64,000 nt of DNA from Candidatus Bruticola sp. GTDB taxonomy: Bacteria > Vulcanimicrobiota > Xenobia > Xenobiales > Xenobiaceae. Made by a program: the position numbers and the translations under genes. The notes under the pieces were generated by a model. The model did not search any database. It was not told the DNA's origin and worked only from the letters and a program-made list of their open reading frames with translations. Below, in pieces: positions 36,066 to 54,134 of the stretch (its first letter is position 1; each line of letters opens with the position of its first letter). The stretch is taken from contig JBJEGC010000022.1 in assembly GCA_051874695.1 (NCBI GenBank), positions 5,895 to 69,894 on the forward strand, read 5' to 3'.

Positions 36066-36103
36066 TGGAACTCTTAAGCGCCTTTATTGGAATCGGAGAA
36101 AAA

Positions 36104-39100: not shown

Positions 39101-40519
39101 ACTTGCGTGCGTGAAGTCAAGCTGCTGCAGCCTTTGAATTTGGAGCTCAGCCAGTGTTTGGGCGCTATGTTCCTGAAGGCCGGTTACTTAGAAGAAGGAC
39201 AGCAACTGCTGGAAGAGCTCATTCCTGCTTACAAAGGGCGCTCCGATCATGAAAACGTGGTTAAAGTGTTCCGAACCCTTTCTGAAGCCTTCGATGCTAA
39301 TCAGCAATGGGAAGCTGCTTTGGAGTATTTGGAGCGTGTTGGTGACGAACAGGTTGAGGCTGATGAGTGGAGGGAAGCTCAATCCAACTATTTGAAGGCC
39401 TTGGAAGAGTACTTGCGCCGTGGACGTCGAGAGTACACGGATACTCTCTTTGTTAAGTTGATTGACGGTTTCTTCCGTCATAAGAACGTCAATGAGGGTG
39501 TAGAGCTGCTGAAGGAAGTTGAGGAGCGTTTCGTTAGGGCGGGTCGAACCGATTTAGCTCTGATCGTAAAAGATCGCCTGGCTTCTATCATGGAGCGGCT
39601 TGAAGAATGGAGCGAAGCTCTCGATGTGGTCATTCTGATTGCTGATACCAACTTGGAGCTGGGGGATGTCGAGCAGGGTATTGCTTACTATCGTCGCGGC
39701 GTCGATTTGGCTGTCAATCATGATATGACCGAGCGCGGCGTTGAGCTGGCTTTCAAAATGGCCGACTTACTCATTAACTATCGGGGCATTGAGGCAGCTC
39801 GTCCGATTTTCGATGAGGTCAGGGTTTACGATAACCAGTCTCCGGAAACCATTGAGCGCATTGCCGATATTATGTTTGAGCGTGGTTACCGCGGTGAAGC
39901 TTGCCCTATCTACAAGGAAGTTTTGGAGTTAGAACCTGGACGCGCTCAGTCTCTTTCCCGCGTGTCTATTATTTACGCCTTAGAAGGTAAACTGGAAGAA
40001 GCGGCCGGCTTGGCTCGTCAGATATTCGCGAAGGGACTCGTTGGCAAAATCACTGAGGAATACGGCAAAGCTCTTTGCTGCAAGCCAAACGATGCCGTTT
40101 ACCACATTAAAATGGGCGAATTCTTTAGGCAGCTTGGTTTCTTGGAAGAAGCTATCGATGAGTTCCATAAAGCTATTACCGATCCGGCTAAGGTTTTGGT
40201 CGCAGTTAATGGTTTAGCTATGGCCTTCCAAGAAAAGGGCTACCGTGACTTAGCTATTAAACAGCTGCAGAAAACCATGGAACAGCCTGGTTTCAGCGAT
40301 GAAGAACTCCTCGATCTGCGCTATAATTTAGCTATTATTCTCCAGGCTGAAGGCCGCTACGATGACGCCATTCAGGCTTTCCAAGAGTGCTACGCCGTAG
40401 ATATTAAGTACCGTGATGTATCTGAGCGCTTGAGTGAACTCTTTGAAAAGGTTGGAGACGGAGTGCCAGGTGAGGGCAGTGGTTACGATGATTACTACTA
40501 TTTCGAAGGAGAGGAGTAG
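36104..40519 (+). CDS. giant all-TPR protein (ORF-track length 1484 aa; ~1471 aa from ATG 36104)
   Basis: TPR-like 34-aa units run throughout, with no TM segment. The ATG at 36104 has GGAG 5 nt upstream. The ORF-track start (GTG 36065) overlaps the upstream stop, so the two genes are translationally coupled or co-transcribed. Confidence 0.7.
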   Translation: MTDRSNMESLIQQADDLVGAGNWEEAREIYKQVVSQDPNNVEVREHVLASAKRALAFQVIIGQDMALAELFAANGEAEKAIDSYKDILNLEKMAQSQGISGAQLSEIQNLVAQVKPEIFAKTGTIYLNEGRYMEAIKWLRPSLDLDPSRWDTHMAMGRALMMDNKNKEAISEFQEVVRLASTEAASAYELLGEVFLRIGRSPQNTIVWFRNAGELFVQRNEFTDAIRAYERILQFEPRNKDILVRLSDIYTAEGYTEKACAAYFTLAQIFEEEGFSDKVMSYLEKTIEFNPADDEARTKLIAIYGEALENDPSNVSLRVRLIENLLKKGMFSEAAENQLELAKIYIDKGSIDDAIATLRKLIDIEPDNIEARRLLGDQYRRKDMGTEALSEYQEVVRLYQENGFADEAIEFQHQLVEMFPETSDLRYQVALSLRSQGNHEGAVRELDRLVRSNPDDMIAMNYLAEEYAALGHWDKAIGAYHEILNHDPARYDVRKRLIKYYVEQSFYEEAMAEIRLLPDDDFEKRAFAYKIIERCLEENRTDEAEAYIHGLEPDDERLVSFHKELLKRYLDLGELVQADRVVTLIPRSDKERNKLITRLMELYLGASNMESAVALIDRLPDDDSLRLSFQRRLINSYQEMGRFEDAATEMAKLPPGDESYHDFSMRQISGLMQSGRLNDAMNCIKELSEDDPARNSFMGQLIEAYLQDGNIDKAAQEVAGLPPKTEVCSRYMRRIIQAYLNNNRFEEAERDIMLLDSNDPEKLSFLRILLQKYEINGLVDNLRELVVKLPDGMPEKQQYLDGIVHSFLTAGNMAKARQEIYSLAETVSEKGNHLEAERLYSDLLAYHPVDVEIRMRLCQEVAAQGKLERASEGLLVLAGRFRKEGNATSAVDIYTRLLEIDPGNLNARYRLGEIWAQHGQTAQALEHFSFLASEYLRQNLNEVAQKVLHRILDLDSKDIVHRRQLITLLARNMRLEEAIENYRVLLGIHLDRGELEEALTCVREVKLLQPLNLELSQCLGAMFLKAGYLEEGQQLLEELIPAYKGRSDHENVVKVFRTLSEAFDANQQWEAALEYLERVGDEQVEADEWREAQSNYLKALEEYLRRGRREYTDTLFVKLIDGFFRHKNVNEGVELLKEVEERFVRAGRTDLALIVKDRLASIMERLEEWSEALDVVILIADTNLELGDVEQGIAYYRRGVDLAVNHDMTERGVELAFKMADLLINYRGIEAARPIFDEVRVYDNQSPETIERIADIMFERGYRGEACPIYKEVLELEPGRAQSLSRVSIIYALEGKLEEAAGLARQIFAKGLVGKITEEYGKALCCKPNDAVYHIKMGEFFRQLGFLEEAIDEFHKAITDPAKVLVAVNGLAMAFQEKGYRDLAIKQLQKTMEQPGFSDEELLDLRYNLAIILQAEGRYDDAIQAFQECYAVDIKYRDVSERLSELFEKVGDGVPGEGSGYDDYYYFEGEE

Positions 40520-40532
40520 GGCTGAGTTTTAC

Positions 40533-41984
40533 ATGAATTGCTCTGTTACTCCATATCGGAAGGTTTTGCGCAGAAGCGTAATTGCTGCCGGTGCAGCGAT
40601 GGCTCTCTTCTGCCTTTCCTGCAGAGCATGGGCCCAGGAAGTCGGCGGCGAAGCTGCTGCTGGTGAGGGCGGGCTCGTGCAAACTTTAGCTTCTCATATG
40701 CAGGTGCTACAGATAGTCTGCGGAGTGTCTGCAGCCATTTTTGTAGTCTGTCTGTGCTGGGAAGTTTGGGTCTCCATTCAGCTGCATCAGAATGGAGGTG
40801 TGCTTCCTGAACCTGAGCCGCAGGAAGAAGAGCCTGAACCTGAAAAGCCTTCCCGCTTTGAGGCTCCTGTGCTGGACGAAACAGAAGATCCGTTTAAGGC
40901 GCTGTTAAATAAGGCCAGCTCGTCTGAGGATGCTAATAAAAATGAGGGAGGAAGTAAGAAGAGTTCTGGGTCTTCCTCTGCTTCTGCACCTTCGTCTTCC
41001 GATTCTGCTGAATCGGGGAGCGGTTTCTCCGGCAGTAAGAAATTTGAACCTTACAAAAATGTCGAACCTATTAAGAGTGGCGATCGTATAACTCGCCGTG
41101 AGCAGGATAATCCGTCTTTTGATGGCGATGCGACTATCGCTGTTGGAGCGGGGTTAGTTCCTCCTAAGGTCGGTGGTTTTGGCGTAGGTACTGGCGGAGC
41201 TGTTGGATTTGGCACTCCTCCTAAACCACCCGCACAGCCTGCTGCTGTCGGATTTGGAGCTCCTTCCAAGCAACATAGTATAGGTTTTGCTCCGCCGAAG
41301 TCTCCCGCCTCCGGTTCGACTGGCTTTGCTCCGCCGAAGCCTCCCGTTTCTGGTCAGGCCGGTTTTGCTCCGCCGAAGTCTCCCGTTTCTGGTCCGGTAG
41401 GCTTTGCTCCGCCGAAGTCTCCCGTTTCCGGTCCGGCCGGTTTTGCTCCGCCGAAGTCTCCCGTTTCTGGTCCGGTAGGTTTTGCTCCGCCGAAGTCTCC
41501 TGTTTCCGGCCCTGTAGGCTTTGCTCCGCCGAAGCCTCCCGTTTCCGGCCCGGCCGGTTTTGCTCCGCCGAAGCCTCCCGTTTCCGGCCCGGCCGGTTTT
41601 GCTCCGCCGAAGTCTCCTGTTTCCGGCCCAGCCGGTTTTGCTCCGCCGAAGTCTCCTGTTTCTGGCCCAGCCGGTTTTGCTCCGCCGAAGTCTCCTGTTT
41701 CTGGCCCAGCCGGTTTTGCTCCGCCTAAACACGGAGGTTTAGGCGTTGGTCCGGGAGCATCCTCAAGTCGTTCTGCTGCGGTTCCTACCAATGTGGGAGC
41801 GGCTCGTCCGACAGTTCCTTTGGGGGCAGCCAGGAGCGCTGCCGGTTCTGCTGACGCCGCTAAAACAGGAGATTCTTGGAAAGCTTTAGCCAGCGGTATG
41901 GAGAATAAAGGTATGGCTCACGGAGCGCCCCGAAGCCAATCTTTAGATATTAAGCGCAGTGGTTTCCCCCCTGCTAACCCTTAA
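40533..41984 (+). CDS. signal-peptide/TM protein with 12 tandem 13-aa proline-rich repeats (GFAPPKSPVSGPA)
   Basis: The ATG at 40533 gives MNCSVTPYRKVLRRSVIAAGAAMALFCLSCRAWA/QE (signal peptide). A second hydrophobic helix follows (VLQIVCGVSAAIFVVCLCWEVWV). Then come an acidic/Ser-rich region, the repeat array, and a Gly/Ala-rich C-terminus. Confidence 0.6.
   Translation: MNCSVTPYRKVLRRSVIAAGAAMALFCLSCRAWAQEVGGEAAAGEGGLVQTLASHMQVLQIVCGVSAAIFVVCLCWEVWVSIQLHQNGGVLPEPEPQEEEPEPEKPSRFEAPVLDETEDPFKALLNKASSSEDANKNEGGSKKSSGSSSASAPSSSDSAESGSGFSGSKKFEPYKNVEPIKSGDRITRREQDNPSFDGDATIAVGAGLVPPKVGGFGVGTGGAVGFGTPPKPPAQPAAVGFGAPSKQHSIGFAPPKSPASGSTGFAPPKPPVSGQAGFAPPKSPVSGPVGFAPPKSPVSGPAGFAPPKSPVSGPVGFAPPKSPVSGPVGFAPPKPPVSGPAGFAPPKPPVSGPAGFAPPKSPVSGPAGFAPPKSPVSGPAGFAPPKSPVSGPAGFAPPKHGGLGVGPGASSSRSAAVPTNVGAARPTVPLGAARSAAGSADAAKTGDSWKALASGMENKGMAHGAPRSQSLDIKRSGFPPANP
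41283..41735 (+). repeat. tandem 39-bp repeat x12 encoding GFAPPK(S/P)PVSGP(A/V)
   Basis: Directly visible in the sequence. Units differ at a few synonymous and A/V sites. Confidence 0.85.
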
Positions 41985-42013
41985 CAGTGTGAAGTTCGAC
42001 GGAGGATGTCCAG

Positions 42014-42907
42014 TTGTATATCCCTAAAGGCAACATATTAATCGAAGACGTAGAGTTGTCGTATGACAATATGCGCGAAATGCAGGCTAACTTATCCAAT
42101 GACGGCTTCACCGGCTATGTCAAGTTAGACTTAGAAAATTCTTCTGCTTATGTTTTTTATGATAATGGCACTGTGGTCCAGGTTTTAGAGGTTGATAACG
42201 CAACTAGTCTGGTTAGTTTGCAATTGGAACAGCGCCTTCTTAATCGTATTAAGCTCGACAACATAAAATGCTCTAGCTACGTGACTTCTAAGCGTATTGT
42301 CAACGTACTGACAGGTATTTTTGCCTTCCAACCTCTTTATCTTGATTATGAAGCCAAAAAGCGTGATATGCCTCGCATTTTGGAAAAACTCCAAGATGGA
42401 GGTTACAGTGGTCTAATGAAGCTGTCTACTCGTGAGGGTACCTATTATTTGGCAATCGATAATGGCGATATTGTGCGCGATCGTTTTTGCTACAACTATG
42501 GGGAAGTTCTCAGTGGTACCGAGGCTATCGATCGCATACTCAATTTTGAGTTCGATAGCGAAGGAGCCACTATGAGCATCTTTGCTGAGCGCGTTGAAGA
42601 GATCGACATTAAGCGCAGTGCTAAAGAAGAGGAACTTGAGAAGATCAAGACTCTGATTGTCAAATCTGATGGCGGTTTCCTGCGGGCTAACGATGTTGTC
42701 AAAGTTGATAACTATATTGTGCGCGAGTGGAATATCGCCGATATTAAGTCTACTTTCTCTGTCGAGATTGAAACTCCGGACGGCTCTCTCTATGAATACA
42801 GATGTCAGGCCGGTTCTAAGTTCGGCGATCGTGCCGGTTTAACGCCTGCCATGATGAAGAAGATGGGATTAGCTGAAGGAGATAATATCTCTATTCGTCC
42901 TCTGTAA
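42014..42907 (+). CDS. protein with two DUF4388-like domains
   Basis: Two segments fit the DUF4388 pattern G.L....L..L......G.L.L......YF.DG.IV. They are GNILIEDVEL...DGFTGYVKLDLENSSAYVFYDNGTVV and ILEKLQDGGYSGLMKLSTREGTYYLAIDNGDIV. The TTG start has GGAGG 8 nt upstream. The domain call relies on recalled family patterns. Confidence 0.45.
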   Translation: MYIPKGNILIEDVELSYDNMREMQANLSNDGFTGYVKLDLENSSAYVFYDNGTVVQVLEVDNATSLVSLQLEQRLLNRIKLDNIKCSSYVTSKRIVNVLTGIFAFQPLYLDYEAKKRDMPRILEKLQDGGYSGLMKLSTREGTYYLAIDNGDIVRDRFCYNYGEVLSGTEAIDRILNFEFDSEGATMSIFAERVEEIDIKRSAKEEELEKIKTLIVKSDGGFLRANDVVKVDNYIVREWNIADIKSTFSVEIETPDGSLYEYRCQAGSKFGDRAGLTPAMMKKMGLAEGDNISIRPL

Positions 42908-43009
42908 ACTTAATGATGCCGGTGCCTCTCTCTATGAAATTTTTTCTGATTAGGGAGGCCCCCGGCTTCTGGCTCCATGAAATAATAGGTGTTTGGAAGG
43001 AGAGAGAGC

Positions 43010-43369
43010 ATGTCTCAACTGACATCTCTGCTGCAAAGTTTTCAGCGTTTAGATGGGGTTCTGGGCGCTTGTATTCTGAGCAAAGATTGTGAAATATTGG
43101 CGGAAAATTTAAACGATTCGGTCAAAAATGATGTCGCAGCCGTTTCTTTTAAGGAGTTCTTGCCTAAAGTAGAAGCTCTCGTGTCCGGATTGGGCGTTGC
43201 CGGGGTTGACAGGCATCATCTGATTCTCGATGATAAACAGCTTATGATAGAAGTTTTAGTCGGCGGGGCTATGCTGGTTGTTTTTACCAGCAGCGACAAC
43301 AGCAATCAAGGGCGCGTGCGCTTAGAGATTCGCAAGAGCAAAAAGAATATAGAAGCAGCTTTGGCTTAG
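43010..43369 (+). CDS. Roadblock/LC7 (MglB-like) domain protein
   Basis: About 119 aa with the roadblock pattern LDGVLGACILSKDCEILAENL...AAVSF...LGVAGVDRHHLILDDKQLMIEVLVGGAMLVVFTSSDNSNQGRVRLEIRK. AGGAG lies 7 nt upstream. Confidence 0.6.
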   Translation: MSQLTSLLQSFQRLDGVLGACILSKDCEILAENLNDSVKNDVAAVSFKEFLPKVEALVSGLGVAGVDRHHLILDDKQLMIEVLVGGAMLVVFTSSDNSNQGRVRLEIRKSKKNIEAALA

Positions 43370-43460
43370 CTGGTTTTTGGGGTCGAAATTCGGTTTATAA
43401 GCTGCAGATTGAATTTTGTCTGTGATAATTAAATGAGGAATAGTGAGGCCGGATACTAAA

Positions 43461-45101
43461 ATGGAAGTAATGACTACTCTGGAAAGGCAAATTCAGAGAA
43501 ATCGCCGTTTACTGGAAAGTGATCCTAATAATGTCGATTTGATGCTTACTTACGCGCTGGATTGCCTGCGTCGCGATTTGCGTTTTGAGGCTTTAGTTAC
43601 TTTCCAGAAGGCAATTCAACTGAAAGATACGGCTGATGCTCATCTGGCTTTGGCGCAAATTTTCTATTTGCAGTCTCTTTATCGCGAATCTTATGAAGAG
43701 CTGCGCCGTGTTTTTAAACTCGATTCCATAAATATAGGCGCTCATGTTTTACTCCATCTGTTGAAGGATAAAGAGAGCATTCCCGACGACTTAGTGCCTC
43801 GTTTAGCTTTTGTGCCATCCCGTTCTGCTTTGGGAGATGAAATGATCAACGCGAGCAATGAGCGCGATCTATATCGTCGTGAAGTTCAGGAATATGAGGC
43901 TATTGCGGCTAGCGGTGTCAACGATCCCGAGCCTATTGTTCTTTATTGTTTGGGGGAAGCTAAAAAGCGCGTTGAGCGCATAAATGTCAACTTGAAAATA
44001 ATGAGCCGCTGGGAGCTTTTGGCTATTGATATGCCAGGCTTCCTGCCTGAAGAGAAGAGCGACTTAGTTGATAAATCTGAGGCTGCTTCCTCTGCTGAGT
44101 CTGAGGAGGTGGAGTCCGTCCAACCTCAAGAATCCTCTGTTGAAATAGAGGCTGTTGCGGCTGTGGAAACTGAGGCTGAAATTGATGCTGAAGCTGAAGA
44201 AAGCCACACTAAGAAAACTAAGAAGTCTAAGCGCCGTCGCGCCAAGGAACGCCATACTTCAGCCGTTGCTGAGACTGAGCAAGTTGCTGCTGTGGAAACC
44301 ACAGAGCCTGCGGCTGAGGTGGAAACTGAGGCTGCTGTAGCTGAGGAGACAACTGAAGCGGAAATTTCTAAAACTGCAGAAACTCTTGATACCACTAGTA
44401 TTGAAGCAGAGCAGCCTGTTGCAGTCAAGATTGAACAACCTGTTGCTGAAGATGAGAGCACCGTTTCCGAAGTTGCCGATATTGTCGAGGAGGTTCCTGC
44501 TGTTGCAGTTACTCTCGATAGTGAGTCTCCCAAGAATGAAGTGGCAGAAGTTGTTTCATCCGAGATTGAGGTGCCCGCTGCTGATCTGTCCGTTGTAAAA
44601 GACGAACAAACTGAGGATAAGGCGACTGCAACTGAGCCTGAGTCTGTATCCGATGATAGTACAACAGAGGTAATAGAAGTTTCTGAATCTGAAGTCGCTG
44701 TCGCCGAAGAGCCTGCAGCGGTGGAGGAAGTTCCTGAACTGCCTTCTGAAGAGGAGTTGGCCAAAGAGGCGTCCTTTAATGAATTTTTGGCTTCCATGTG
44801 CAAAATTAAAGGCAGTGTGAGAGCTATGGTTTTGACCGCTCGCGGACGTTTGGCTGCTATAGAGGGAGAGTTTGAACAGCCTGAAGAGACTGCTGCCAGA
44901 GTCGCTGGTTTCCTGAAAGGTGTCTGCAGTGACGGCAAGATGCGTCTAATTACTTTTGTCAGTGAGAGCAAGAACAGTTCAGTCATTCTGCAGCAGATTA
45001 ATGACACTTATTATATGTTGGTAGACGGACGGTCAGTCACCTTGGGCGTTTTGCGCCAACGTGCTGAGCGATGCAAAACTGAATTGGCTGGTTTGTGTTG
45101 A
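43461..45101 (+). CDS. TPR - acidic low-complexity linker - Roadblock/LC7 domain fusion protein
   Basis: N-terminal TPR-like repeats and a ~230-aa Glu/Ala/Val/Thr-rich linker. The C-terminal ~110 aa fit the roadblock pattern (GSVRAMVLTARGRLAAIEGEFEQPEETAARVAGFLKG...SSVILQQINDTYYMLV). Confidence 0.55.
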   Translation: MEVMTTLERQIQRNRRLLESDPNNVDLMLTYALDCLRRDLRFEALVTFQKAIQLKDTADAHLALAQIFYLQSLYRESYEELRRVFKLDSINIGAHVLLHLLKDKESIPDDLVPRLAFVPSRSALGDEMINASNERDLYRREVQEYEAIAASGVNDPEPIVLYCLGEAKKRVERINVNLKIMSRWELLAIDMPGFLPEEKSDLVDKSEAASSAESEEVESVQPQESSVEIEAVAAVETEAEIDAEAEESHTKKTKKSKRRRAKERHTSAVAETEQVAAVETTEPAAEVETEAAVAEETTEAEISKTAETLDTTSIEAEQPVAVKIEQPVAEDESTVSEVADIVEEVPAVAVTLDSESPKNEVAEVVSSEIEVPAADLSVVKDEQTEDKATATEPESVSDDSTTEVIEVSESEVAVAEEPAAVEEVPELPSEEELAKEASFNEFLASMCKIKGSVRAMVLTARGRLAAIEGEFEQPEETAARVAGFLKGVCSDGKMRLITFVSESKNSSVILQQINDTYYMLVDGRSVTLGVLRQRAERCKTELAGLC

Positions 45102-47577
45102 TTTGAAAGCAGAGCGCGTTATTTTTAACATAAGCACTTACGGTGCTTTGGCTGTTGTTGGTGGTATTTTGGCCTTTCCTGCCGTTACAGCGGTGTCACA
45201 GGCCTACAGTAACGGCGCGCTCAGCTCTGCCCCCGTTTCTTCTCTCAGTCTGTTCGACTTTTTGAGACATGTTGTCCTAGATTCCGATTCAGGGGCCATG
45301 ATGGGAATGGGCAGAGGGGCTCTGGTTATGCTCATTGGAGTGGCCTCTCTGCTTTGGTTGTCTGTACCTCGCCTGCGCACTGAAAAGGGTGTTTTTGTTG
45401 GCATTGGTTTAAGTCTACTGCTTTTGTGGGGGGCCCTTTCTGCTTACTTCAGCGTCTGCGCTTATGAGAGCATGCTCGATTTATGTTCCTACGCTTCTTC
45501 CGTCAGTTTCTTTTTGTTGATAGCTGCCCTTAGCAGAGAGTTCTCTCTAAGGAGATGCCTTGGGGGAAAAAGTGGCGGTGAGGTTCAGCAGTCTGCAGAG
45601 CGCACTGCCAAAGCGGCTGTTTCGTATTTGCAGCTGATGACTTTTGCTGCAATAGCAGGGGCATGGCTGCTTTTTTTATGCAATCCTGTGGGCGATGGCT
45701 TGTCCGGCAGCTTTTACAATAAGAATTTACTCGCCGTATTTCTGCTTTTAACTCTTCCTGTAGGAATAGTTCGTCTATTTGAGCACTGCCGGGAGGCAGA
45801 AATCCATTATATAAGTGGTCTTAGTGCCTCTTTAGTTGCGTCAATTTTTTGTCAGATTTCTTTTATCACTGCAAATATAAGTAGTCTGTTTTTAACTTAC
45901 AGCCGTTCTTGCTTAATATTAGCTTGTTTTGCTCTGTCTGCTTCTTTTTGGCTAATTGTTTATCTTTCTAAAAATAGTCGTGAAGCTTGGCGTGGGGCAG
46001 CTTGGGCCGCCTTAAGTTGTCTGCTGTTGATCTTTTCAGTTTTTCTCTTTTCACGCTCGTTTTATGTCGCTTTAGTTTGCCTGGCCGCATCAGCAGTGGT
46101 TGTTTACAGGTTTTTCTTGAGTGGTGTCAAGGGCGGTAAGTTGATGGCGGCTCTTTTATGTGCTTCGGCTGTTTTATTTTCGTTGGTTGTCCTTTTTGTG
46201 CAGAGCGATTCGATGGCCGCTAAAGGAAGTCGCCATTTACAAGATTTGGGGGCCAAAGGCGATACCTCTTTAACATCCAGATGTCAATTCTATGAAGCTT
46301 CTCTAAAAATTACTGGGGAACATCCTCTGCTGGGAGTAGGGGCCGGTAATTTTGAGCGCTATTATCCTCTGTTTCAAACTGATTTTCGCTGGTTTTCTAA
46401 GCGTTCTCATTCTTTGAGCTGCGATTTGTTGGCTGAAGGAGGGGTGCTCTCGTTTGTACTTTTTTATGGACTGCTTGCTTTTGTTTATGTGCAGACCGTC
46501 AAAAAGGTCAGATCTGATGCGCCGCTTGTGGCTCAGCTTCGTTTGGCCTGTGCTTTAGGAGCTGCCCTTCTACTTATTCATGCCCAGTTAGATATAGACA
46601 GCCATGTTATGGTACTGCCTCTTTGGGGAGCTGCTTTGCTTGGTTTGGCTTGGGGAATTCCCAGCCGGGATGAGTGTTTATCTAATACTCTGGATGAGTG
46701 TGGTTTGTGGAGCAGTGGCAAACGTTACTTTATTAGTTATAACTGCATTCCCGCCGCGGCAGTTATCTTGGTTTTTTGCTTTTCAGGACAGGCCTGGGGA
46801 GGGCAATATTACAGTACTATAGGTAAAATTTATCTTGATATGGATGAACCGGAGAAGGCCAGGCAGTGTTATAACTGGGCTTCTGAATACGATCCCAATA
46901 TCGGTGAGTACTGGCGTCAAATGGCCGCTCTGGCCTTAAACCAGTGTAAGAGCGAAGATAAAGCTAAGTCGGTAGCCGTTAGCATACGTTTTTGTGCTAT
47001 GCAGGCTGCGCGTCTCGATCCCCATAGAGCTTCTGTACAGAGTATACTGGGACAGGGATTGGAGCTGTCTGACGATTTGCAGGGAGCCGAACAATGTTAT
47101 AAGCGCGCTTTAGAATTGGATAGTAAAAATTCTCCTGATATTTATAGCAATTTGGCTAGAGTATATTCGAAGCAAGGACGCCTTAAAGAGGCTAAGTCTG
47201 TACTCGATCGGGCTTGGTCGGCTTTTCCGGAAGAGTTGCTGCATCAGAATTATTTCTTTGACTTTCGTTACAAGCTGATAAATAATGAAATGGCTTCTTG
47301 TTGTTTAATGCGTTTTGAAATTGCTGCAACTGAAGGCAACATGGCAGAAGCAGAACTCAGCTTGTCCAGGGCGTGCAGGTTTGATAGCTCTCTTAAGAAT
47401 AGTTTGAAAGATGCAGCTGTCTATTTTCTAGAGCAGAGCAAGATTTCTGCTGCAGCGGGACAAATTAGCAAGGCAGAAAAGGAGAAAGCCAAAGCTGTAT
47501 GCTTCCTAAAGGTGGCTGCTTCTGCTATGCCGCAGGACGACAATATAAAAGGTTTGCTCCGGCTAACGGAAAGGTAA
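45061..47577 (+). CDS. O-antigen ligase-like (Wzy_C) polytopic membrane protein with C-terminal TPR domain
   Basis: More than 10 TM helices. The Wzy_C signature is present (EHPLLGVGAGNFERYY...RSHSLSCDLLAEGGVLS). The C-terminal ~280 aa are TPR-like. The start is uncertain because it overlaps the upstream gene. Confidence 0.65.
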   Translation: MLSDAKLNWLVCVDLKAERVIFNISTYGALAVVGGILAFPAVTAVSQAYSNGALSSAPVSSLSLFDFLRHVVLDSDSGAMMGMGRGALVMLIGVASLLWLSVPRLRTEKGVFVGIGLSLLLLWGALSAYFSVCAYESMLDLCSYASSVSFFLLIAALSREFSLRRCLGGKSGGEVQQSAERTAKAAVSYLQLMTFAAIAGAWLLFLCNPVGDGLSGSFYNKNLLAVFLLLTLPVGIVRLFEHCREAEIHYISGLSASLVASIFCQISFITANISSLFLTYSRSCLILACFALSASFWLIVYLSKNSREAWRGAAWAALSCLLLIFSVFLFSRSFYVALVCLAASAVVVYRFFLSGVKGGKLMAALLCASAVLFSLVVLFVQSDSMAAKGSRHLQDLGAKGDTSLTSRCQFYEASLKITGEHPLLGVGAGNFERYYPLFQTDFRWFSKRSHSLSCDLLAEGGVLSFVLFYGLLAFVYVQTVKKVRSDAPLVAQLRLACALGAALLLIHAQLDIDSHVMVLPLWGAALLGLAWGIPSRDECLSNTLDECGLWSSGKRYFISYNCIPAAAVILVFCFSGQAWGGQYYSTIGKIYLDMDEPEKARQCYNWASEYDPNIGEYWRQMAALALNQCKSEDKAKSVAVSIRFCAMQAARLDPHRASVQSILGQGLELSDDLQGAEQCYKRALELDSKNSPDIYSNLARVYSKQGRLKEAKSVLDRAWSAFPEELLHQNYFFDFRYKLINNEMASCCLMRFEIAATEGNMAEAELSLSRACRFDSSLKNSLKDAAVYFLEQSKISAAAGQISKAEKEKAKAVCFLKVAASAMPQDDNIKGLLRLTER

Positions 47578-47712: not shown

Positions 47713-48471
47713 CTATTGGGCAGATGCCATATATATATCGCTTTGAGGAGCCTCAACCCTATTGGCATAAAATACGAAGTTGCCGTCAGGGTGCTGAGGA
47801 GCAGTATTCATAGCTTGCTTGGTGGTTGTGCGCAACTCTCCGGTAGCAGGATCGGCGATGGTGACGGTATCACCCTCTGTTTTGACGATGGTTACGATGT
47901 GACCGCGTCCTGAAGGGGAGAACTCAGGGCCGTTCAAAGCTACAATAACAGGAGTTTTTTCGTTGTTAACCTTGTGATCGATCAGTTCCCAAGAACCGGC
48001 GTTGAGATCGCCGCCGTCTTTCCAGTTATAACCTGCCTTACCGCATTCTGCATTGAGAGCGTTGAGCAGTTCAAAACCGTACTTGTCGTTAATATCGTAA
48101 TCGGTTAAGTTCTGTCCAGTTAAAGCGTTGACAGCCATGGCTACGCTAGTTTGACCGCAGGAAACTGGGGTATTCTGAGCCAACGGTTTTACTCCCATTT
48201 CGCCTAATCTGGCACTGCCGAAGTTAGAAGGATCGACTACGCCAACATTCTGGCTATTCATTAGGCTCCACAATTGGGGATTTACACCTTGAATATCATT
48301 CAAATTGATGGGAGCTTGAGGCTGAGCAAGGGCTTGAGGCACAGGAGCCTTATTCACCTTTTCAAACATCTGGGAGAAAGCGAGTGAATTCACTTCAGGT
48401 TCTTTGTTCAGACGCTTTTCGATTTGCTCTATACGATTCATCGCTTGCTGGATGTTATTGAGCATAAACAA
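47713..48471 (-). CDS. papain-fold C39-like cysteine peptidase domain protein
   Basis: The C-terminal domain has a Cys in QNTPVSCGQTSVAMAV and a His in GRGHIVTIV, followed by Asp, resembling the Peptidase_C39_2 arrangement. No signal peptide. GGAGGG RBS. The peptidase assignment is tentative. Confidence 0.45.
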   Translation of the reverse strand: MFMLNNIQQAMNRIEQIEKRLNKEPEVNSLAFSQMFEKVNKAPVPQALAQPQAPINLNDIQGVNPQLWSLMNSQNVGVVDPSNFGSARLGEMGVKPLAQNTPVSCGQTSVAMAVNALTGQNLTDYDINDKYGFELLNALNAECGKAGYNWKDGGDLNAGSWELIDHKVNNEKTPVIVALNGPEFSPSGRGHIVTIVKTEGDTVTIADPATGELRTTTKQAMNTAPQHPDGNFVFYANRVEAPQSDIYMASAQ

Positions 48472-48621
48472 CCCTCCTGATAAAAGATAGCCAACTTTGA
48501 TAAAAATCTGCCATTGTATGCGAATATTTTACCTTATTTTGTCAAGTATTATCATATTTATATATTAAATTTCAATGAACATTAAGGGCCGAACAGTTAC
48601 GATAGTCAAATTTCAGCCGAT

Positions 48622-49668
48622 TTAAATAAGGGAGCTGATATCGTTGAACTGATGGCGGAAATTTTGTGAGCCTATAGAGCGCACATCGCTGACTCTCTCT
48701 CCGTAAACAGGCTTAAATTCTTCTCCTCCGTAGCGATAGGCATATTCATTCCAAGGACCTTCGCATACCAACCTAAATCGGCAGGATAAACATGGAGGAA
48801 ATTTTTCTTTTATAGTAGGTCGGAGTTCTGACCAGTTCGAGGCGCCGAAGTTTGAGCCGTATTGGTTGATTTCCGAGTAAGCTTGCGTCTGTTGGAATAT
48901 TTCACCGACTAAGTGTTCGTATCCGCTTACTGTACAGTAAGGGAAAGTTTCCAGCCGTACATTTACATGTTTTTGCTGCAAACGCCGGGCTGCTTCTTTT
49001 ACAAAGGGAGATACGTCTTTGTAGCGGGGAACTACTAATTCCCACATTTTTGAGGCACGCCCCTGAGCGTGTGGAAAGGCTATATCGATGGATTCTGCCT
49101 GTAACTCGGCAAATTTATCGGCAATTTCCGGCAGCAAGCGAAAATTTTGCAACGAAATGACAATTTTTCCGCTAAAGGAAAAACCTAATTTGTGAATGTT
49201 GCGCAGCCCCTGAACAGTTTCTGCAAAGGAACCGTTTCTTTGAGTTATTTTATCGTGAACAGTTGCTGTAGGTCCGTGCAAGGCGATACAAAAATTGAAA
49301 ATACCGCGATAGTTGTTCAGATTTTGAGCAAATGCCCAATCGGAAAAAGCTCTGCCGTTGCTTTGCAGCATGATATTGTAGTCAAGTTCCTTAGCCAACT
49401 GGACAATATCCCAAAAATCGGATCTTATAGTCGGTTCTCCGCCGGTAATTACCAGTGTGTCTCCGCGTTCTCTGGCCGAACGCATTTCCTGAGCTATTTC
49501 AGCAAAAGTTTTATCTTGCTTCATATGCTTATTTTTGAGAGCATCGCGAAAATCATCAACTACACAGTGTATGCAGGCATCATTGCATGAATAGCCGACT
49601 TTTAAATCTATTACAGTCATAAGATAGCCTATTTTTAAGTTCTGTGCGCCTTCCTTCCCATGGAACAT
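48622..49668 (-). CDS. radical SAM enzyme with C-terminal SPASM/twitch domain (peptide-modifying-type)
   Basis: The CxxxCxxC motif (CNDACIHC) sits near the N-terminus. GGE-like (TGGEPT) and ribose motifs are present. The C-terminal CLSCRFRLVC (Cx2Cx5C) cluster is typical of SPASM. Confidence 0.8.
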   Translation of the reverse strand: MFHGKEGAQNLKIGYLMTVIDLKVGYSCNDACIHCVVDDFRDALKNKHMKQDKTFAEIAQEMRSARERGDTLVITGGEPTIRSDFWDIVQLAKELDYNIMLQSNGRAFSDWAFAQNLNNYRGIFNFCIALHGPTATVHDKITQRNGSFAETVQGLRNIHKLGFSFSGKIVISLQNFRLLPEIADKFAELQAESIDIAFPHAQGRASKMWELVVPRYKDVSPFVKEAARRLQQKHVNVRLETFPYCTVSGYEHLVGEIFQQTQAYSEINQYGSNFGASNWSELRPTIKEKFPPCLSCRFRLVCEGPWNEYAYRYGGEEFKPVYGERVSDVRSIGSQNFRHQFNDISSLI

Positions 49669-49836
49669 TCAACTTTTTCAACCTTATCGAGAATCGGTAG
49701 CTGTTTTGCCGTTACTTGTCTCTCTCGATTTCAGGTTAAGCCGATTTATTTTTGGCTATAAAAATGGGGATCTGACTACAAGCGGCGAAAGCGCGCCAAA
49801 ACGGTTTTGAATAGCCTAAATCATTTGGATAGAGCC

Positions 49837-51246
49837 ATGAAGCATAGTAGTGAAAAAATAGTAGATGAAGAGTTAGATAGAGCAGTATTTGTTAAAGCCG
49901 ATCATGTGAGAGTTTTTAAGGAAAATTCTGTTTGGGCAATAGATCTGGAGAGTGGTTCTGTTATGAACTTTACCGATTTGGGTAAATCTCTGTATATGGC
50001 CTGCAACGGTTTAGACAACGTTCAGGAAATTGGACGCTGTTTGGGGATATCCACAGAAAATGCCCGCTGTTTATTTCTGGAAATGATGCGGGCCGGTTTC
50101 ATTAAAATTGCAGGTAATGTGGTGTCAGTTAAGGAGAGTGCAGCCGGTACTGGTGTGAATTGTAGTTTTGGGACTGACACATGCGTTTTTGATGCCCGAG
50201 AATTGGAAGAAAATGTCAGGCCACTTAATGAAATCGAACAAAAATGGCGTGACAGAGGATATGCGTTTCTGAAGCACTTGGGCAATACGGCTCATGTGCC
50301 GACCGAAAGCAGAAGGCCGATTTTTTATTTTAGAAATTGGGATTGGTATAAACACAGTCAAATATTAAGTAATTTGTTGTCTGTTTGGATGGAAATAGTC
50401 GGCTTGAGCGATGAGGCACTGCCTAGTATGAATAAGGTTGTTGCTCCCTTCAAGGTTGTTATTGAAAGTGCAGTATTGCCCAAAGCTTCTCAGTTTGTAG
50501 ATATATGTCGTGGCTGTGCCTCTGAAGAGCTGCTGTGCAATTGGGAGCGGCTAACCGATTTAGGGCTTCTGTGGTGTCGTTTACATCTGCTCAGTGCACA
50601 TATATTGTGGAGCGTCAGTCCGGCAGATATAAAGCAAGGCAATACCTCGGCTTTTGCAAAATGTTTTAAGTTCGAGCCGGTGAAACTTCCCGGTCTTGCT
50701 GCTGCAGCAGAAATATCTTCAATGTTATTAGATACAGCTATAAAGCATTTTGCTTTACCCTCCGGATATTGCGGCAGTTTTCCCATAGCTGGTATTTCTG
50801 TAATGCCTGTAGTGTGCTGCTCTCACGAGGGAGAGCTGAAAGAAATTGCTGAGAACTTAGCTGAAGTTAGTTGTTGCACTTGGGGATTTTCGCTAAATGA
50901 TTCTTTGTTGTCAGCAAGTCCGGCTTGGTTGGAAAAAGAGCTCGATGAGCTTTTGCTATTGTGCTTTAACAGCAACGGCCTATCACAGAATACAGAAATA
51001 TTTCCTTTAACTCGTTGGCTTAAAGATATTTTAGGTTATGTCGATCGTTGTGAAAGTTTGGAAACAGTTTTAAATAGGAAAAAAGCGGAGCCATGGTTTA
51101 AAAATAAGTGTCGCCGTTGCCCAAATTGGCATTTTTGCGCTTCAAGTTTTGGCCACCCGTCTTTACCTTGCTCTTGGTTGACTCGCCAGTCTCTGCAAAT
51201 CCTGCGCAGAGTTGCTGACCTTCCTTCTAATAAGCAGCACAGCTAA
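49837..51246 (+). CDS. PqqD-like RiPP-recognition-element (RRE) domain protein with Cys-rich C-terminal region
   Basis: The N-terminal ~90 aa (VWAIDLESGSVMNFTDLGKSLYMACNGLDNVQEIGRCLGISTENARCLFLEMMRAGFI) fit the PqqD/RRE pattern. The remainder has no recognisable domain and ends in CRRCPNWHFC...C. The ORF-track alternative start is TTG at 49807. Confidence 0.5.
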   Translation: MKHSSEKIVDEELDRAVFVKADHVRVFKENSVWAIDLESGSVMNFTDLGKSLYMACNGLDNVQEIGRCLGISTENARCLFLEMMRAGFIKIAGNVVSVKESAAGTGVNCSFGTDTCVFDARELEENVRPLNEIEQKWRDRGYAFLKHLGNTAHVPTESRRPIFYFRNWDWYKHSQILSNLLSVWMEIVGLSDEALPSMNKVVAPFKVVIESAVLPKASQFVDICRGCASEELLCNWERLTDLGLLWCRLHLLSAHILWSVSPADIKQGNTSAFAKCFKFEPVKLPGLAAAAEISSMLLDTAIKHFALPSGYCGSFPIAGISVMPVVCCSHEGELKEIAENLAEVSCCTWGFSLNDSLLSASPAWLEKELDELLLLCFNSNGLSQNTEIFPLTRWLKDILGYVDRCESLETVLNRKKAEPWFKNKCRRCPNWHFCASSFGHPSLPCSWLTRQSLQILRRVADLPSNKQHS

Positions 51247-51284: not shown

Positions 51285-54134
51285 ATGACTGATAATCATC
51301 AAAAATTCACCGAATTAAGTGAAGAGTCCGACAGTAGTGACTCTTTTTCATCTTCATCTCAGACAGAAAAATCTGTCGAAGAACATGTTGAAACTATAGA
51401 TAAAAGTGTAGAAGATAGCCAAGAGACATCAGAGAGTGCTGTGCAATCGTCTAAACAGCAGATTAGTTCCGATATTGCAGAAGATCCTGGCGATGCATTT
51501 GTTTTTGTTGACAGTGACGCTCCTGAAGGTCCGAGCTCTATGGAGCGCTTAACTGATGCTCTGATCAGCCGCTGGCAGCAGCGTCAGGAAAAGCATAGAG
51601 CTGAATCGGAGCCTCCGGTTGTGGATTCTTCTGCTGTGGAGAATAATAAGGAACCAGATCAAGCTTCCGGTGCCGATAAGCAGTCTGAAATCTTTCAGCT
51701 CTCGGATACGGAATTTGACATTATAGGAGCTGACGGAGGCGTTGTGCCTAAAACTGAGGTCGAAGAAGAAATGGACCGTGAGGTTGAACATCAGCGGCGC
51801 CGCAGTGCTTTCTTTGAGGAACAAGAGTTGGTTATGCTGCCTGTTCCTGATATTGTAGTTTTTCCCGGTTTGATTCTACCCGTTTCCATCGAGACGGAAA
51901 GTTCTATAAAGGCAGTAGAGTATGCTCTGGAAAATGACACGCCTTTATTCTTAATTACCAAGAGGCAGAGTGACAGCTCTAACATAGCTAAAACCACTTT
52001 ATATAAGACCGGCTGTATTTGTGCTTCAGTTCAGGCTGCCCGCTTGCATAATGGCAGTTTTCGTTTGGTGCTTCATGGTATTCTTAGAGCTAAAGTCAAG
52101 AAAATTACTTCGCGCAAGCCCTTCGCTAAAGTAAGACTGGAAGTAGTTCATGACATTATTAGCGATAAGTCGGAAATTGAAGCGGCTATGCAGGTGGTGG
52201 CCCATCAGTTCCGCCAAGTGGCCTCTTTGAGCTCCAATATATCTCCTGAATTAGCTATGGCTATGTCTAGCGTGCGCAACCCTGGACAGATAGCCGATTT
52301 AGTGGCTGTCAATTTGGGAGTAACAACCAAAGAAAAACAGTCAGTTCTCGATACGTTAGATGTCTGCGCCCGTTTGCACAAAGTTTCTGTACTACTTTCT
52401 AAAGAAATTGAAGTACTCAAGATAGAAAATAAAATTCAGAACAAAGCTGAAATGGAAATGATGAAGGGGCATAAAGAGTATTTCCTTCGTCAACAGATTA
52501 AAGCTATTCAGGAAGAACTGGGTGATAGCGTCGACGAAGGCGCTGATGTGCAAAGATTGAAAGAGGGAATCGCGGAGAGCGGTATGCCACCAGAAGCTGC
52601 TGAGCATGCTTCAAAAGAGGTAAAACGGTTGAGCCGCATGTCAGCAGCCTCTCCCGATTACAACATGATCTACACCTACGTAGAGCGCTTACTGCAGTTC
52701 CCTTGGAATAAGACTACCCAAGACATTCTCGATTTAAAAAAAGCGGAAGCTATACTCAATGAAGAGCATTATGGGTTAAAAGAGGTCAAAGAGCGAATTT
52801 TAGAGTTCTTGTCCGTGCGTAAGCTTAAAGAAAATCATCGAGGTTCTATTATTTGCTTTGTAGGACCGCCTGGAGTTGGTAAAACTTCTTTAGGTCGGTC
52901 AATTGCCCGCACTATGGGACGCAAGTTCAATCGCACTTCCTTAGGAGGTGTGCGCGATGAAGCTGAAATCAGAGGACACCGCAGTACTTACATCGGTTCT
53001 ATGCCTGGTAGAATTATTCAGGCTATGTGCAGTGCCGGGGCGCGCAATCCGGTAATTATGCTCGATGAAATCGATAAGTTAGGTAACGATTATCGAGGCG
53101 ATCCCTCGGCAGCTCTATTAGAGGCATTGGATCCGGAGCAAAACAAAGAATTTAAAGATAATTATTACGGCATACCTGTCGATCTTTCGGCAGTAATGTT
53201 TATCATGACTGCCAATGTGCTCGATACTATTCCTCCGGCTTTGCGTGATCGCATGGAGGTCATCCGTCTGTCCGGCTATACTTTAGAAGAAAAGATGGAA
53301 ATAGCCAAAGGCTTCCTTATTCCCCGTCAGATAGAAGAAAACGGTTTAACTGGTCAGCTGTTTAGTCTTACCGATGAAGCATTGCGCTGTGTGATTAAAG
53401 AGTATACTCGGGAAGCCGGCGTGCGCAGTTTGGAAAGAGAAATAGCTGGGTTGTGTCGTAAGGTTGCTCGCAAAATTACAGAATCACGCCGTCCGCGTCG
53501 CAAATTAAAAACCCTGACAATTGCAGACGTCCGTGAACTGTTGGGAACCGCACCTTATACAGATTCTGACAAGCTGGATATAGATCCTATACCCGGATGT
53601 GTACAGGGATTGTCATGGACTCAAGTTGGCGGAGAAATGCTGACTATTGAAACTAATATTATTCCCGGTAAAGGACGCATGACTTTGACTGGAAATTTGG
53701 GTCAAGTTATGAAAGAATCGGCCAAGGCTGCCGTTACTTGGGGGCGCAGTTTCTTGAATAGCCGTGGTATCGATTTTGATTATTACAAACACGATATCCA
53801 CATTCATGTGCCGGAAGGGGCTATTCCTAAAGATGGTCCTTCAGCAGGTATAACTTTAGCTAGTTCTTTTATTTCGGCTGCTTTAGGCAAGCCTGCTCGC
53901 CAAGATATTGCCATGACTGGTGAAATTACTTTGACTGGACGTGTTATGGCCATAGGAGGAGTTAAGGAAAAGGTTTTAGCTGCTTTTAATTCGTCTATAC
54001 GTGAGGTTATTTTGCCTGAAGAAAACAGACGCCATCTTCAGGAAATACCTGACGAGATTCGCAGTCAAATCACTTTCCATTTTGTTAAACATGCCGATGA
54101 AGTTATAGATATAGTTATGACCGGGGCAAAATAA
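51285..54134 (+). CDS. lon: ATP-dependent protease Lon with ~170-aa acidic N-terminal extension
   Basis: Lon N domain, AAA+ Walker [10 protein letters not shown], and a C-terminal protease domain with the catalytic Ser in DGPSAGIT and the Lys in ...KEKVLAA. Confidence 0.9.

Follow-up and report, generated by a model that had tools for sequence, protein, structure and literature searches.

An HxsC-like radical SAM enzyme and its apparently degenerate maturase-like partner in Candidatus Bruticola

Hxs-type systems and the radical SAM enzyme of the locus

Families TIGR03976-03979 belong to the His-Xaa-Ser system (Haft and Basu 2011). HXS (HxsD-HxsB-HxsC-HxsA) is an antiphage system in which the HxS-repeat effector HxsA depends on HxsB, HxsC and HxsD for its maturation, and the HxsB substitutions C98A/C101A abolish both HxsA cleavage and defence (PMC13128918). 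A related pair of genes is described here from a metagenome-assembled genome of Candidatus Bruticola (Vulcanimicrobiota/Eremiobacterota, class Xenobia), within a 64-kb window, which is the whole stretch of DNA analysed; metagenomes of human (Hadza) gut and of goat rumen supplied the related contigs. The pair consists of a radical S-adenosylmethionine (rSAM) enzyme encoded at 48622..49620 (minus strand) and a partner protein encoded at 49837..51246 (plus strand). The locus encodes a pair of rSAM-type proteins of the Hxs kind, the second of which has turned into a pseudoenzyme. The first-pass annotation of the window had flagged three open reading frames (ORFs), these two and a C39-like peptidase gene. 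All three are genuine and lie at the coordinates it gave, and the rSAM gene and the gene of 479 aa are, as it held, divergently transcribed neighbours. Alignment with orthologous loci shifted the three start codons. The conserved start of the rSAM gene is ATG 49620, which gives 332 aa rather than 348 (the open frame extends to 49668), and that of the partner gene is ATG 49837, which gives 469 aa; TTG 49807 would give 479 aa.

The likeness to HXS lies in both genes. In many loci of archaea and bacteria the rSAM family takes the HxsC slot, with a bona fide HxsB, HxsD and precursors with HxS repeats beside it, and two rSAM-type genes are paired, the larger of which combines an N-terminal domain with rSAM and SPASM regions. 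In contrast to HXS, the two genes are divergent and not co-directional, and HxsA, HxsD, HxS repeats and a leader are absent from the 64 kb. The rSAM enzyme scores far below the curated cut-offs (106 bits against 267.9 for HxsC, 124.8 against 500 for HxsC4), while the partner is not HxsB by profile (E >= 0.006 even for intact forms from sister lineages) and is catalytically dead.

The rSAM enzyme is matched by Pfam Radical_SAM (E = 6e-18) and contains both CX3CX2C and GGEP, in agreement with its earlier assignment. The SPASM domain also attributed to it did not hold up, as there is no Pfam SPASM match at E <= 1. The SPASM signature (PF13186 / TIGR04085) comprises seven Cys in the arrangement CX9-15GX4C…CX2CX5CX3C…C and binds two auxiliary clusters; the C-terminal region of the enzyme has only four conserved Cys, C229 and a CX2CX5C (332-aa numbering), which form one auxiliary-cluster motif. 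Eighteen diverse homologues share an invariant CX3CX2C (CNDACIHC), GGEP, FPHAxG, C229 and a CX2CX5C that is followed by EGPWxEY. The enzyme thus has the HxsC-type combination of a CX3CX2C cluster and a second Cys cluster motif; its set of catalytic motifs is complete and one auxiliary Fe-S motif is kept, so that it looks active.

The top NCBIfam matches of the enzyme are HxsC4 (NF038332, 4e-36) and HxsC (TIGR03977, 1.6e-30). Because of these matches, and because its relatives stand beside HxsB, HxsD and HxS precursors, the enzyme is classed as HxsC-like, in respect of its family as well as of the genomic role that its relatives play. The earlier view of a sactipeptide/ranthipeptide-type SPASM enzyme gives way to this, since the closest family is HxsC/HxsC4 and the relatives lie in HxsD-HxsB-HxsC-HxsA cassettes. 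The family comprises 741 protein clusters, with relatives in 433 stretches of a one-genome-per-species collection, and ranges over DPANN archaea, Omnitrophota, Myxococcota, Negativicutes, Heliobacterium, Chloroflexota, gut Vulcanimicrobiota and others.

Neighbourhoods were analysed at 79 genome loci of the rSAM family, 67 of them outside Xenobia. Among these 67, HxsB was found in 27 (within 300 bp in 20 of those), an HxsD-like gene in 24 and a His-Xaa-Ser repeat ORF in 12; at the other 40 the rSAM gene is not beside HxsB. In two Woesearchaeota loci (L035 and L046) a family member whose scores are likewise sub-threshold comes immediately after a bona fide HxsB, which itself reaches 443 bits (cut-off 370), and HxsD or an HxsD-like gene (NF038315, 52.8 against 41) is present as well. 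In L035 the scores of the family member are 129 bits for HxsC4 and 89 bits for HxsC. Leader-bearing ORFs were found in 15 loci with a leader profile (KK.L..FL..EEGKISK), and in 15 loci a neighbouring protein cluster occurs whose tested members match A24 prepilin-type peptidase.

According to a published survey, 99.7% of HXS systems are in Pseudomonadota. Hxs-like cassettes were seen here beyond that phylum, in DPANN, CPR (candidate phyla radiation) and other loci (L025, L030, L033, L035, L041, L045, L046, L052, L053, L062, L071, L073, L074, L076, L084 and L086). Between them, these loci have HxsD or an HxsD-like gene, HxsB, the HxsC-like rSAM, an A24 prepilin peptidase and precursors of 85-190 aa in which the conserved leader KK.L..FL..EEGKISK and a hydrophobic segment are combined with HxS repeats at the C-terminus. 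Some leader-bearing ORFs, those of L046, L025, L035 and L049, have no HxS repeats. A different context is seen in Heliobacterium and Negativicutes loci (L040, L051, L059), where the HxsC-like rSAM has other rSAM/SPASM genes around it; in L051 and L059 a UvrA-like double ABC ATPase (about 1050 aa) precedes it.

The enzyme also has weaker resemblances, to AhbD, NirJ, BlsE and MoaA-type proteins (NCBIfam E 1e-21 to 1e-14; BlsE in the PDB 3.6e-15). These would suit a role in non-peptide chemistry, in which the target of the enzyme is a small molecule, a glycan, a lipid or a cofactor connected with the envelope genes nearby (Wzy_C-TPR and C39_2), while the partner serves as a structural accessory that has nothing to do with peptide recognition. 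The 40 loci without adjacent HxsB and the clustering of the four genes in three arrangements point the same way. Such chemistry is nevertheless judged quite unlikely, given that HxsC4 and HxsC are the top families, that 27 loci have a direct Hxs context, that the partner has an RRE (RiPP recognition element) fold, whose known role is peptide binding, and that in a related contig, L092, Wzy_C and C39 are still there although the pair is missing.

The partner protein and its history

Direct profile searches reveal little about the partner. It has no Pfam or NCBIfam match, Pfam PqqD (PF05402) does not match it at E <= 1, and one homologue (P0127) reaches PqqD at E = 0.035, below the cut-off. A sequence-profile search of the PDB returned a chance match only. 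The protein is also narrowly distributed, with four matches among 5.8 billion proteins and four in an exhaustive profile search of 1.84 billion representatives.

Its ancestry is indicated by sister Xenobia lineages (UBP9-type genomes), in which an orthologous rSAM gene (54-57% identical) is divergently paired with a gene for a protein of 425-430 aa. These counterparts keep CSPSCPEC (CX3CX2C), GGEP or GAEP and the full SPASM CX2CX5CX3C with flanking Cys; intact partners with CX2CX5CX3C occur in L005-8, L015-17 and L020. The intact partners weakly match Radical_SAM (1e-4), the sactipeptide maturase StsB in its N-terminal region (1.8e-6) and SPASM (0.005), and in profile-profile comparison by hhalign the intact partner matches HxsB at a probability of 91.6% (E = 8e-7) over 208 columns. 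The Bruticola partner aligns with the intact partners at its N-terminal domain (BLASTP E = 0.002) and at the C-terminal C.RC..W..C…C…LLWR block, and it also aligns with them in hhalign (E = 7e-4); its Cys align with CX2CX5C[X3C]…C of the intact forms. The partner of L019 is intermediate: its motifs are gone, it is matched over its full length by the hidden Markov model (HMM) of the intact partners (8.8e-16), and it is matched by the Bruticola-type HMM at 0.0024. The Bruticola partner and its relatives have neither CX3CX2C nor GGEP, the motifs expected of Radical SAM (PF04055) proteins, and retain only CX2CX5C…C.

An early AlphaFold 2 model of the partner, from four sequences, was too weak (pLDDT 57), and the modelling was repeated with nine homologues, which gave pLDDT 67 and pTM 0.61; Foldseek results were concordant on the two models. 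In the predicted structure the N-terminal domain, at 49879..50118 (plus strand; about residues 25-104 in the 479-aa numbering), has a winged-helix fold of a three-stranded sheet plus three helices, which can be superposed on known RREs, and it contains an invariant YMACNGLDN motif. The PqqD-like RRE of the first-pass annotation is therefore borne out as a fold, and it fails as a PqqD profile match. The roughly 390 residues that follow had been called a novel Cys-rich domain. They instead appear to be a degenerate rSAM barrel, with a beta/alpha core at 50173..51036 (plus strand; about residues 123-410) that lacks the CX3CX2C loop and GGEP, and a SPASM remnant at 51109..51171 (plus strand). Because position, the sequence bridge through L019 and the structure model agree, the partner is interpreted as a decayed RRE–rSAM–SPASM enzyme with a catalytically dead core.

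The SPASM remnant contains C435-X2-C438-X5-C444-X10-C455, which is invariant in all nine partner homologues; the four Cys are among 15 invariant positions, which also include RRE residues. We take this motif to be equivalent to the four auxiliary-cluster-II ligands of the anaerobic sulfatase-maturating enzyme (in anSMEcpe, CX2CX5C and the last Cys). By analogy with anSMEcpe, the partner would retain one auxiliary cluster site and would have lost the first auxiliary cluster.

Among described proteins, the nearest architectures are the RRE-containing rSAM/SPASM maturases TigE (8VPO), CteB (5WGG), SuiB (5V1Q), ChlB (9GM3) and SkfB (6EFN). The partner differs from all five in lacking CX3CX2C, GGEP and the auxiliary-cluster-I ligands, and identity is 8-13%. 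The Bruticola protein is not called an HxsB, since in hhalign neither the mixed alignment (A2) nor the degenerate set matched HxsB significantly (probability 0.3-1.5%). A precedent is the 'pseudo-SAM/SPASM protein' of Halobacteria (TIGR04347), which comprises conserved rSAM/SPASM homologues without the canonical cluster motif, although it belongs to another family and lineage and has no significant match to the Bruticola partner. Similarly, in PqqD/PqqE, MftB/MftC and HxsD/HxsC a non-catalytic peptide-binding protein serves a separately encoded rSAM enzyme, as is proposed here. PqqD, MftB and HxsD are proteins of about 90 aa, whereas the Bruticola adaptor would be a 470-aa former enzyme with a dead barrel and a four-Cys site. 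In the papers retrieved by a literature search on rSAM pseudoenzymes with an RRE, the word 'pseudoenzyme' was not found.

The rSAM and partner genes are adjacent and divergent in all 13 genome loci. In a neighbour-joining tree of the rSAM enzymes, those linked to a partner form one clade (98% bootstrap). One of its subclades (94%) contains degenerate partners only; the other (91%) unites the intact-partner group (100%) with L021 and L022, in both of which the partner is degenerate and also shortened. Since degenerate partners flank the intact group, and lost motifs cannot be regained, the catalytic motifs would have been lost at least twice, assuming that the two genes were inherited together. 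Two contigs labelled 'Burkholderiales' (L020 and L029) carry the Xenobia-type rSAM, partner and C39 genes and are probably misbinned.

A dead protein in a pair without a visible substrate raises the question of decay, in which the locus would be an orphaned HXS-like remnant without HxsA and HxsD, the cassette functionless and the partner drifting towards a pseudogene. Features consistent with this are the missing catalytic motifs of the partner and its substitution rate, the highest of the region (40-62% identity where Lon has 74-86%), together with the shortened partners (291-325 aa) of L021 and L022 and the deletion of the cassette in L092 without loss of a neighbouring gene. Ratios of nonsynonymous to synonymous substitution (dN/dS), computed by the Nei-Gojobori method and approximate because dS is saturated (dS > 1), are 0.17-0.30 for the partner, 0.03-0.09 for the rSAM enzyme and 0.004-0.024 for C39. 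The partner is thus clearly still under purifying selection (dN/dS about 0.2), and, apart from the two shortened forms, it has been kept at full length even across lineages with saturated dS. A relic would also be hard to reconcile with the 15 invariant partner positions, with rSAM catalytic motifs that are all intact and with a dead state that persists in two separate clades. Decay is for these reasons considered unlikely.

The peptidase gene and the extent of the cassette

The peptidase gene lies at 47713..48465 (minus strand) and encodes 250 aa from a conserved ATG at 48465, which follows an AGGAGG site in an alignment of seven loci. Its assignment as C39-like was confirmed by Pfam Peptidase_C39_2 (PF13529; E = 9.5e-7, 29.9 bits against a gathering cut-off of 24), a family of papain-like peptidases that stand alone. 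The catalytic Cys, His and Asp are conserved, and SCGQTS, GRGHIV and ADPATG are invariant. The protein differs from the N-terminal C39 domain of bacteriocin ABC exporters and has a conserved N-terminal extension of 90 aa; comparison with PDB sequences gave no informative match. It is the most conserved gene product of the neighbourhood (94-99% amino acid identity across the clade).

The first-pass annotation had seen in the three genes a cryptic system for a peptide that is made on the ribosome and modified after translation (RiPP). As a full model, this would be a complete cluster in which the rSAM enzyme modifies a small RRE-bound precursor, C39 removes the leader, and the precursor ORF is too small or unannotated. 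In its favour, the rSAM gene adjoins that of an RRE protein, and C39 stays near the pair, along with Wzy_C, in three gene orders: partner-rSAM-C39-Wzy in the window, partner-rSAM-[P-type ATPase]-C39-Wzy in L005-8 and C39-partner-rSAM-Wzy in L019. Membership of C39 in the cassette was considered because of this clustering and was rejected on the evidence of L092.

L092 was found in a metagenome scan with the C39 protein and is a close relative (C39 93%, Lon 77%). Its gene order is rhomboid-Lon-[373 bp]-C39-Wzy_C-acidic protein-Roadblock-DUF4388, with neither the rSAM nor the partner gene. The 373-bp gap contains a remnant of the rSAM 3' end, corresponding to residues 307-338 (47% identity, E = 1.6e-4), while the region upstream of C39 is 86% identical over 185 nt and no other gene is lost within the 17-kb neighbourhood. 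Since both genes are absent and an rSAM remnant persists, the pair was deleted together, and C39 is independent of it. C39 homologues with 39-70% identity were, in addition, found in more than 30 metagenome loci that have neither this rSAM family nor the partner nor Wzy_C, in varying contexts. The C39 gene has its own conserved upstream region at 48466..48621 (minus strand), with a TTGACA box at 48525-48545 and the AGGAGG ribosome-binding site, which is present in seven loci including the pair-less L092. A role for C39 as the leader peptidase of the unit is contradicted by these observations; the gene is a bystander, and the functional unit is a dispensable accessory cassette of two genes, not three.

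No precursor is annotated or detectable at the locus, in line with what the first-pass annotation had reported. When ORFs of 15-130 aa were clustered from 15 Xenobia-type loci, the conserved clusters proved to be alternative-frame shadows of large genes. No conserved small ORF thus exists outside the large genes in the 15 neighbourhoods, which for this lineage is the outcome that the first-pass annotation itself had named as counting against its RiPP reading. A scan for (H.S)x3 repeats and a search with an HxsA-leader HMM found nothing in the window or the Xenobia-type loci, and HxsB, HxsD, the HxS repeat and an HxsA-type leader are all absent from the window and from 13 Xenobia-type loci.

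The complete-cluster model is largely refuted by L092, and it is now very improbable. Its other difficulties are the pair-less C39 homologues, a dN/dS of C39 (about 0.01) that is atypical of a tailoring protease, the absent small ORF, and the fact that in true Hxs-type cassettes this rSAM family is accompanied by an A24 prepilin peptidase and not by C39. With neither a conserved precursor gene nor a leader peptidase co-inherited with the maturase, the locus is not a novel or complete RiPP cluster. What stands of the RiPP-maturation interpretation is an rSAM enzyme paired with an RRE-bearing protein, both from families of peptide or protein maturases; the sactipeptide type, the unassigned status of the Cys-rich sequence and the role of C39 do not.

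Several further features of the surrounding genes were observed. C39 is more conserved than Lon and retains 70% identity even to distant Xenobia; its N-terminal helix MLNNIQQAMNRIEQIE is invariant, and the conserved block upstream of the gene is about 120 nt long. Between this block and the ribosome-binding site, L003 (6440-6835) and L004 have an insertion of about 230 bp in which gene callers place spurious ORFs of 75 and 103 aa. Directly upstream of C39_2 homologues, L107 (6123-8543) and L111 (6116-8543) encode an HpnJ/PhpK-like rSAM core (288-303 aa) and a 239-aa protein, after a WD40 Ser/Thr kinase. This rSAM was examined as a member of the same family and rejected (BLASTP E = 1.9), and the 239-aa protein is unrelated to the partner; the arrangement may be a coincidence or a second rSAM-C39_2 association. 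The divergent intergenic region of the pair, at 49621..49836, presumably contains both putative promoters. Within it, at 49784-49797, lies GGCGAAAGCGCGCC, a small GC hairpin whose loop is GAAA and which is semi-conserved over five loci with varying stem bases.

The Lon protease gene (51285-54134, plus strand) starts just 39 bp past the partner gene, and in its product about 180 aa, acidic and rich in Ser, extend the N-terminus ahead of the substrate-binding domain. On the other side, a long co-directional gene run at 29394-47577 (plus strand) resembles a polarity, motility or envelope module. Its products are two giant TPR proteins, of 2223 and 1484 aa, one protein of 516 aa, a DUF4388/PATAN-like protein of 297 aa (93-96% conserved over the clade), a Roadblock/LC7 protein, a 552-aa acidic low-complexity protein with a Roadblock-like end by eye and no profile match, and a Wzy_C (O-antigen-ligase-like) and TPR membrane protein.

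A proposed mechanism and its meaning for the family

The reading that is favoured, and regarded as reasonably likely, is that of a two-gene cassette in which an active HxsC-like rSAM enzyme is served by a dead, RRE-bearing partner that acts as a substrate-recruiting or scaffolding subunit. The partner descends from an RRE–rSAM–SPASM maturase with the architecture and partner role of HxsB. Its RRE may bring in a substrate, either peptide or protein, in the manner of PqqD with PqqE or of HxsD with HxsC, and its residual Fe-S or metal site possibly stabilizes this recruitment. A substrate encoded elsewhere would then be presented to the active rSAM enzyme, which would install a radical-mediated modification. 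The physical pairing of the two proteins, the peptide nature of the substrate and the chemistry itself are all inferred.

Several observations weigh against this proposal. Mutation of the rSAM cluster of HxsB abolishes canonical HXS function (PMC13128918), and a dead partner cannot work in the canonical manner, because the radical cluster of HxsB is essential and HxsA and HxsD are required in HXS. HxsD is not present, and a substrate was not found in the 64 kb or in any related locus. The direct similarity between the Bruticola and intact partners is weak (E = 0.19 against the intact-partner HMM, in addition to the BLASTP and hhalign values given above), and the link between them leans on the L019 intermediate, on synteny and on a model of medium confidence. 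The fast evolution of the partner and the dispensability of the cassette in L092 are both compatible with decay.

In a more specific and tentative form, less probable than not, an HxsB-like maturase would have been converted at least twice in gut Xenobia into a conserved pseudoenzyme, an obligate adaptor for the active HxsC-like rSAM enzyme on a protein substrate that is new and unlinked, with only the RRE and one Fe-S or metal site kept. Such an adaptor pair could have a mobile, dispensable role in defence or in modification of the envelope. The analogy with HXS makes a role like defence possible, and the dispensability in L092 and the ancestry of the pair would fit a function that is accessory and possibly related to defence. 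PADLOC returned only a generic rSAM similarity to pVip and gave no support for a role in defence.

For annotation, the locus is a case in which RODEO/antiSMASH-style tools would probably call the rSAM, RRE and C39 genes a RiPP cluster, and comparative genomics corrects that call. The practical pay-off will be modest until the substrate is found. The HxsC-like family is extended to DPANN archaea, Omnitrophota, Negativicutes, Myxococcota and gut Vulcanimicrobiota, and its proteobacterial relatives were recently shown to be antiphage. The series of partners from intact to dead bears on the division of labour between the two Hxs-type rSAM enzymes, and also on how RRE-bearing enzymes turn into pure adaptors. 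If the proposed history is true, the gut Xenobia would provide a natural experiment in which the second rSAM enzyme of Hxs-type pairs proved reducible to a non-catalytic role.

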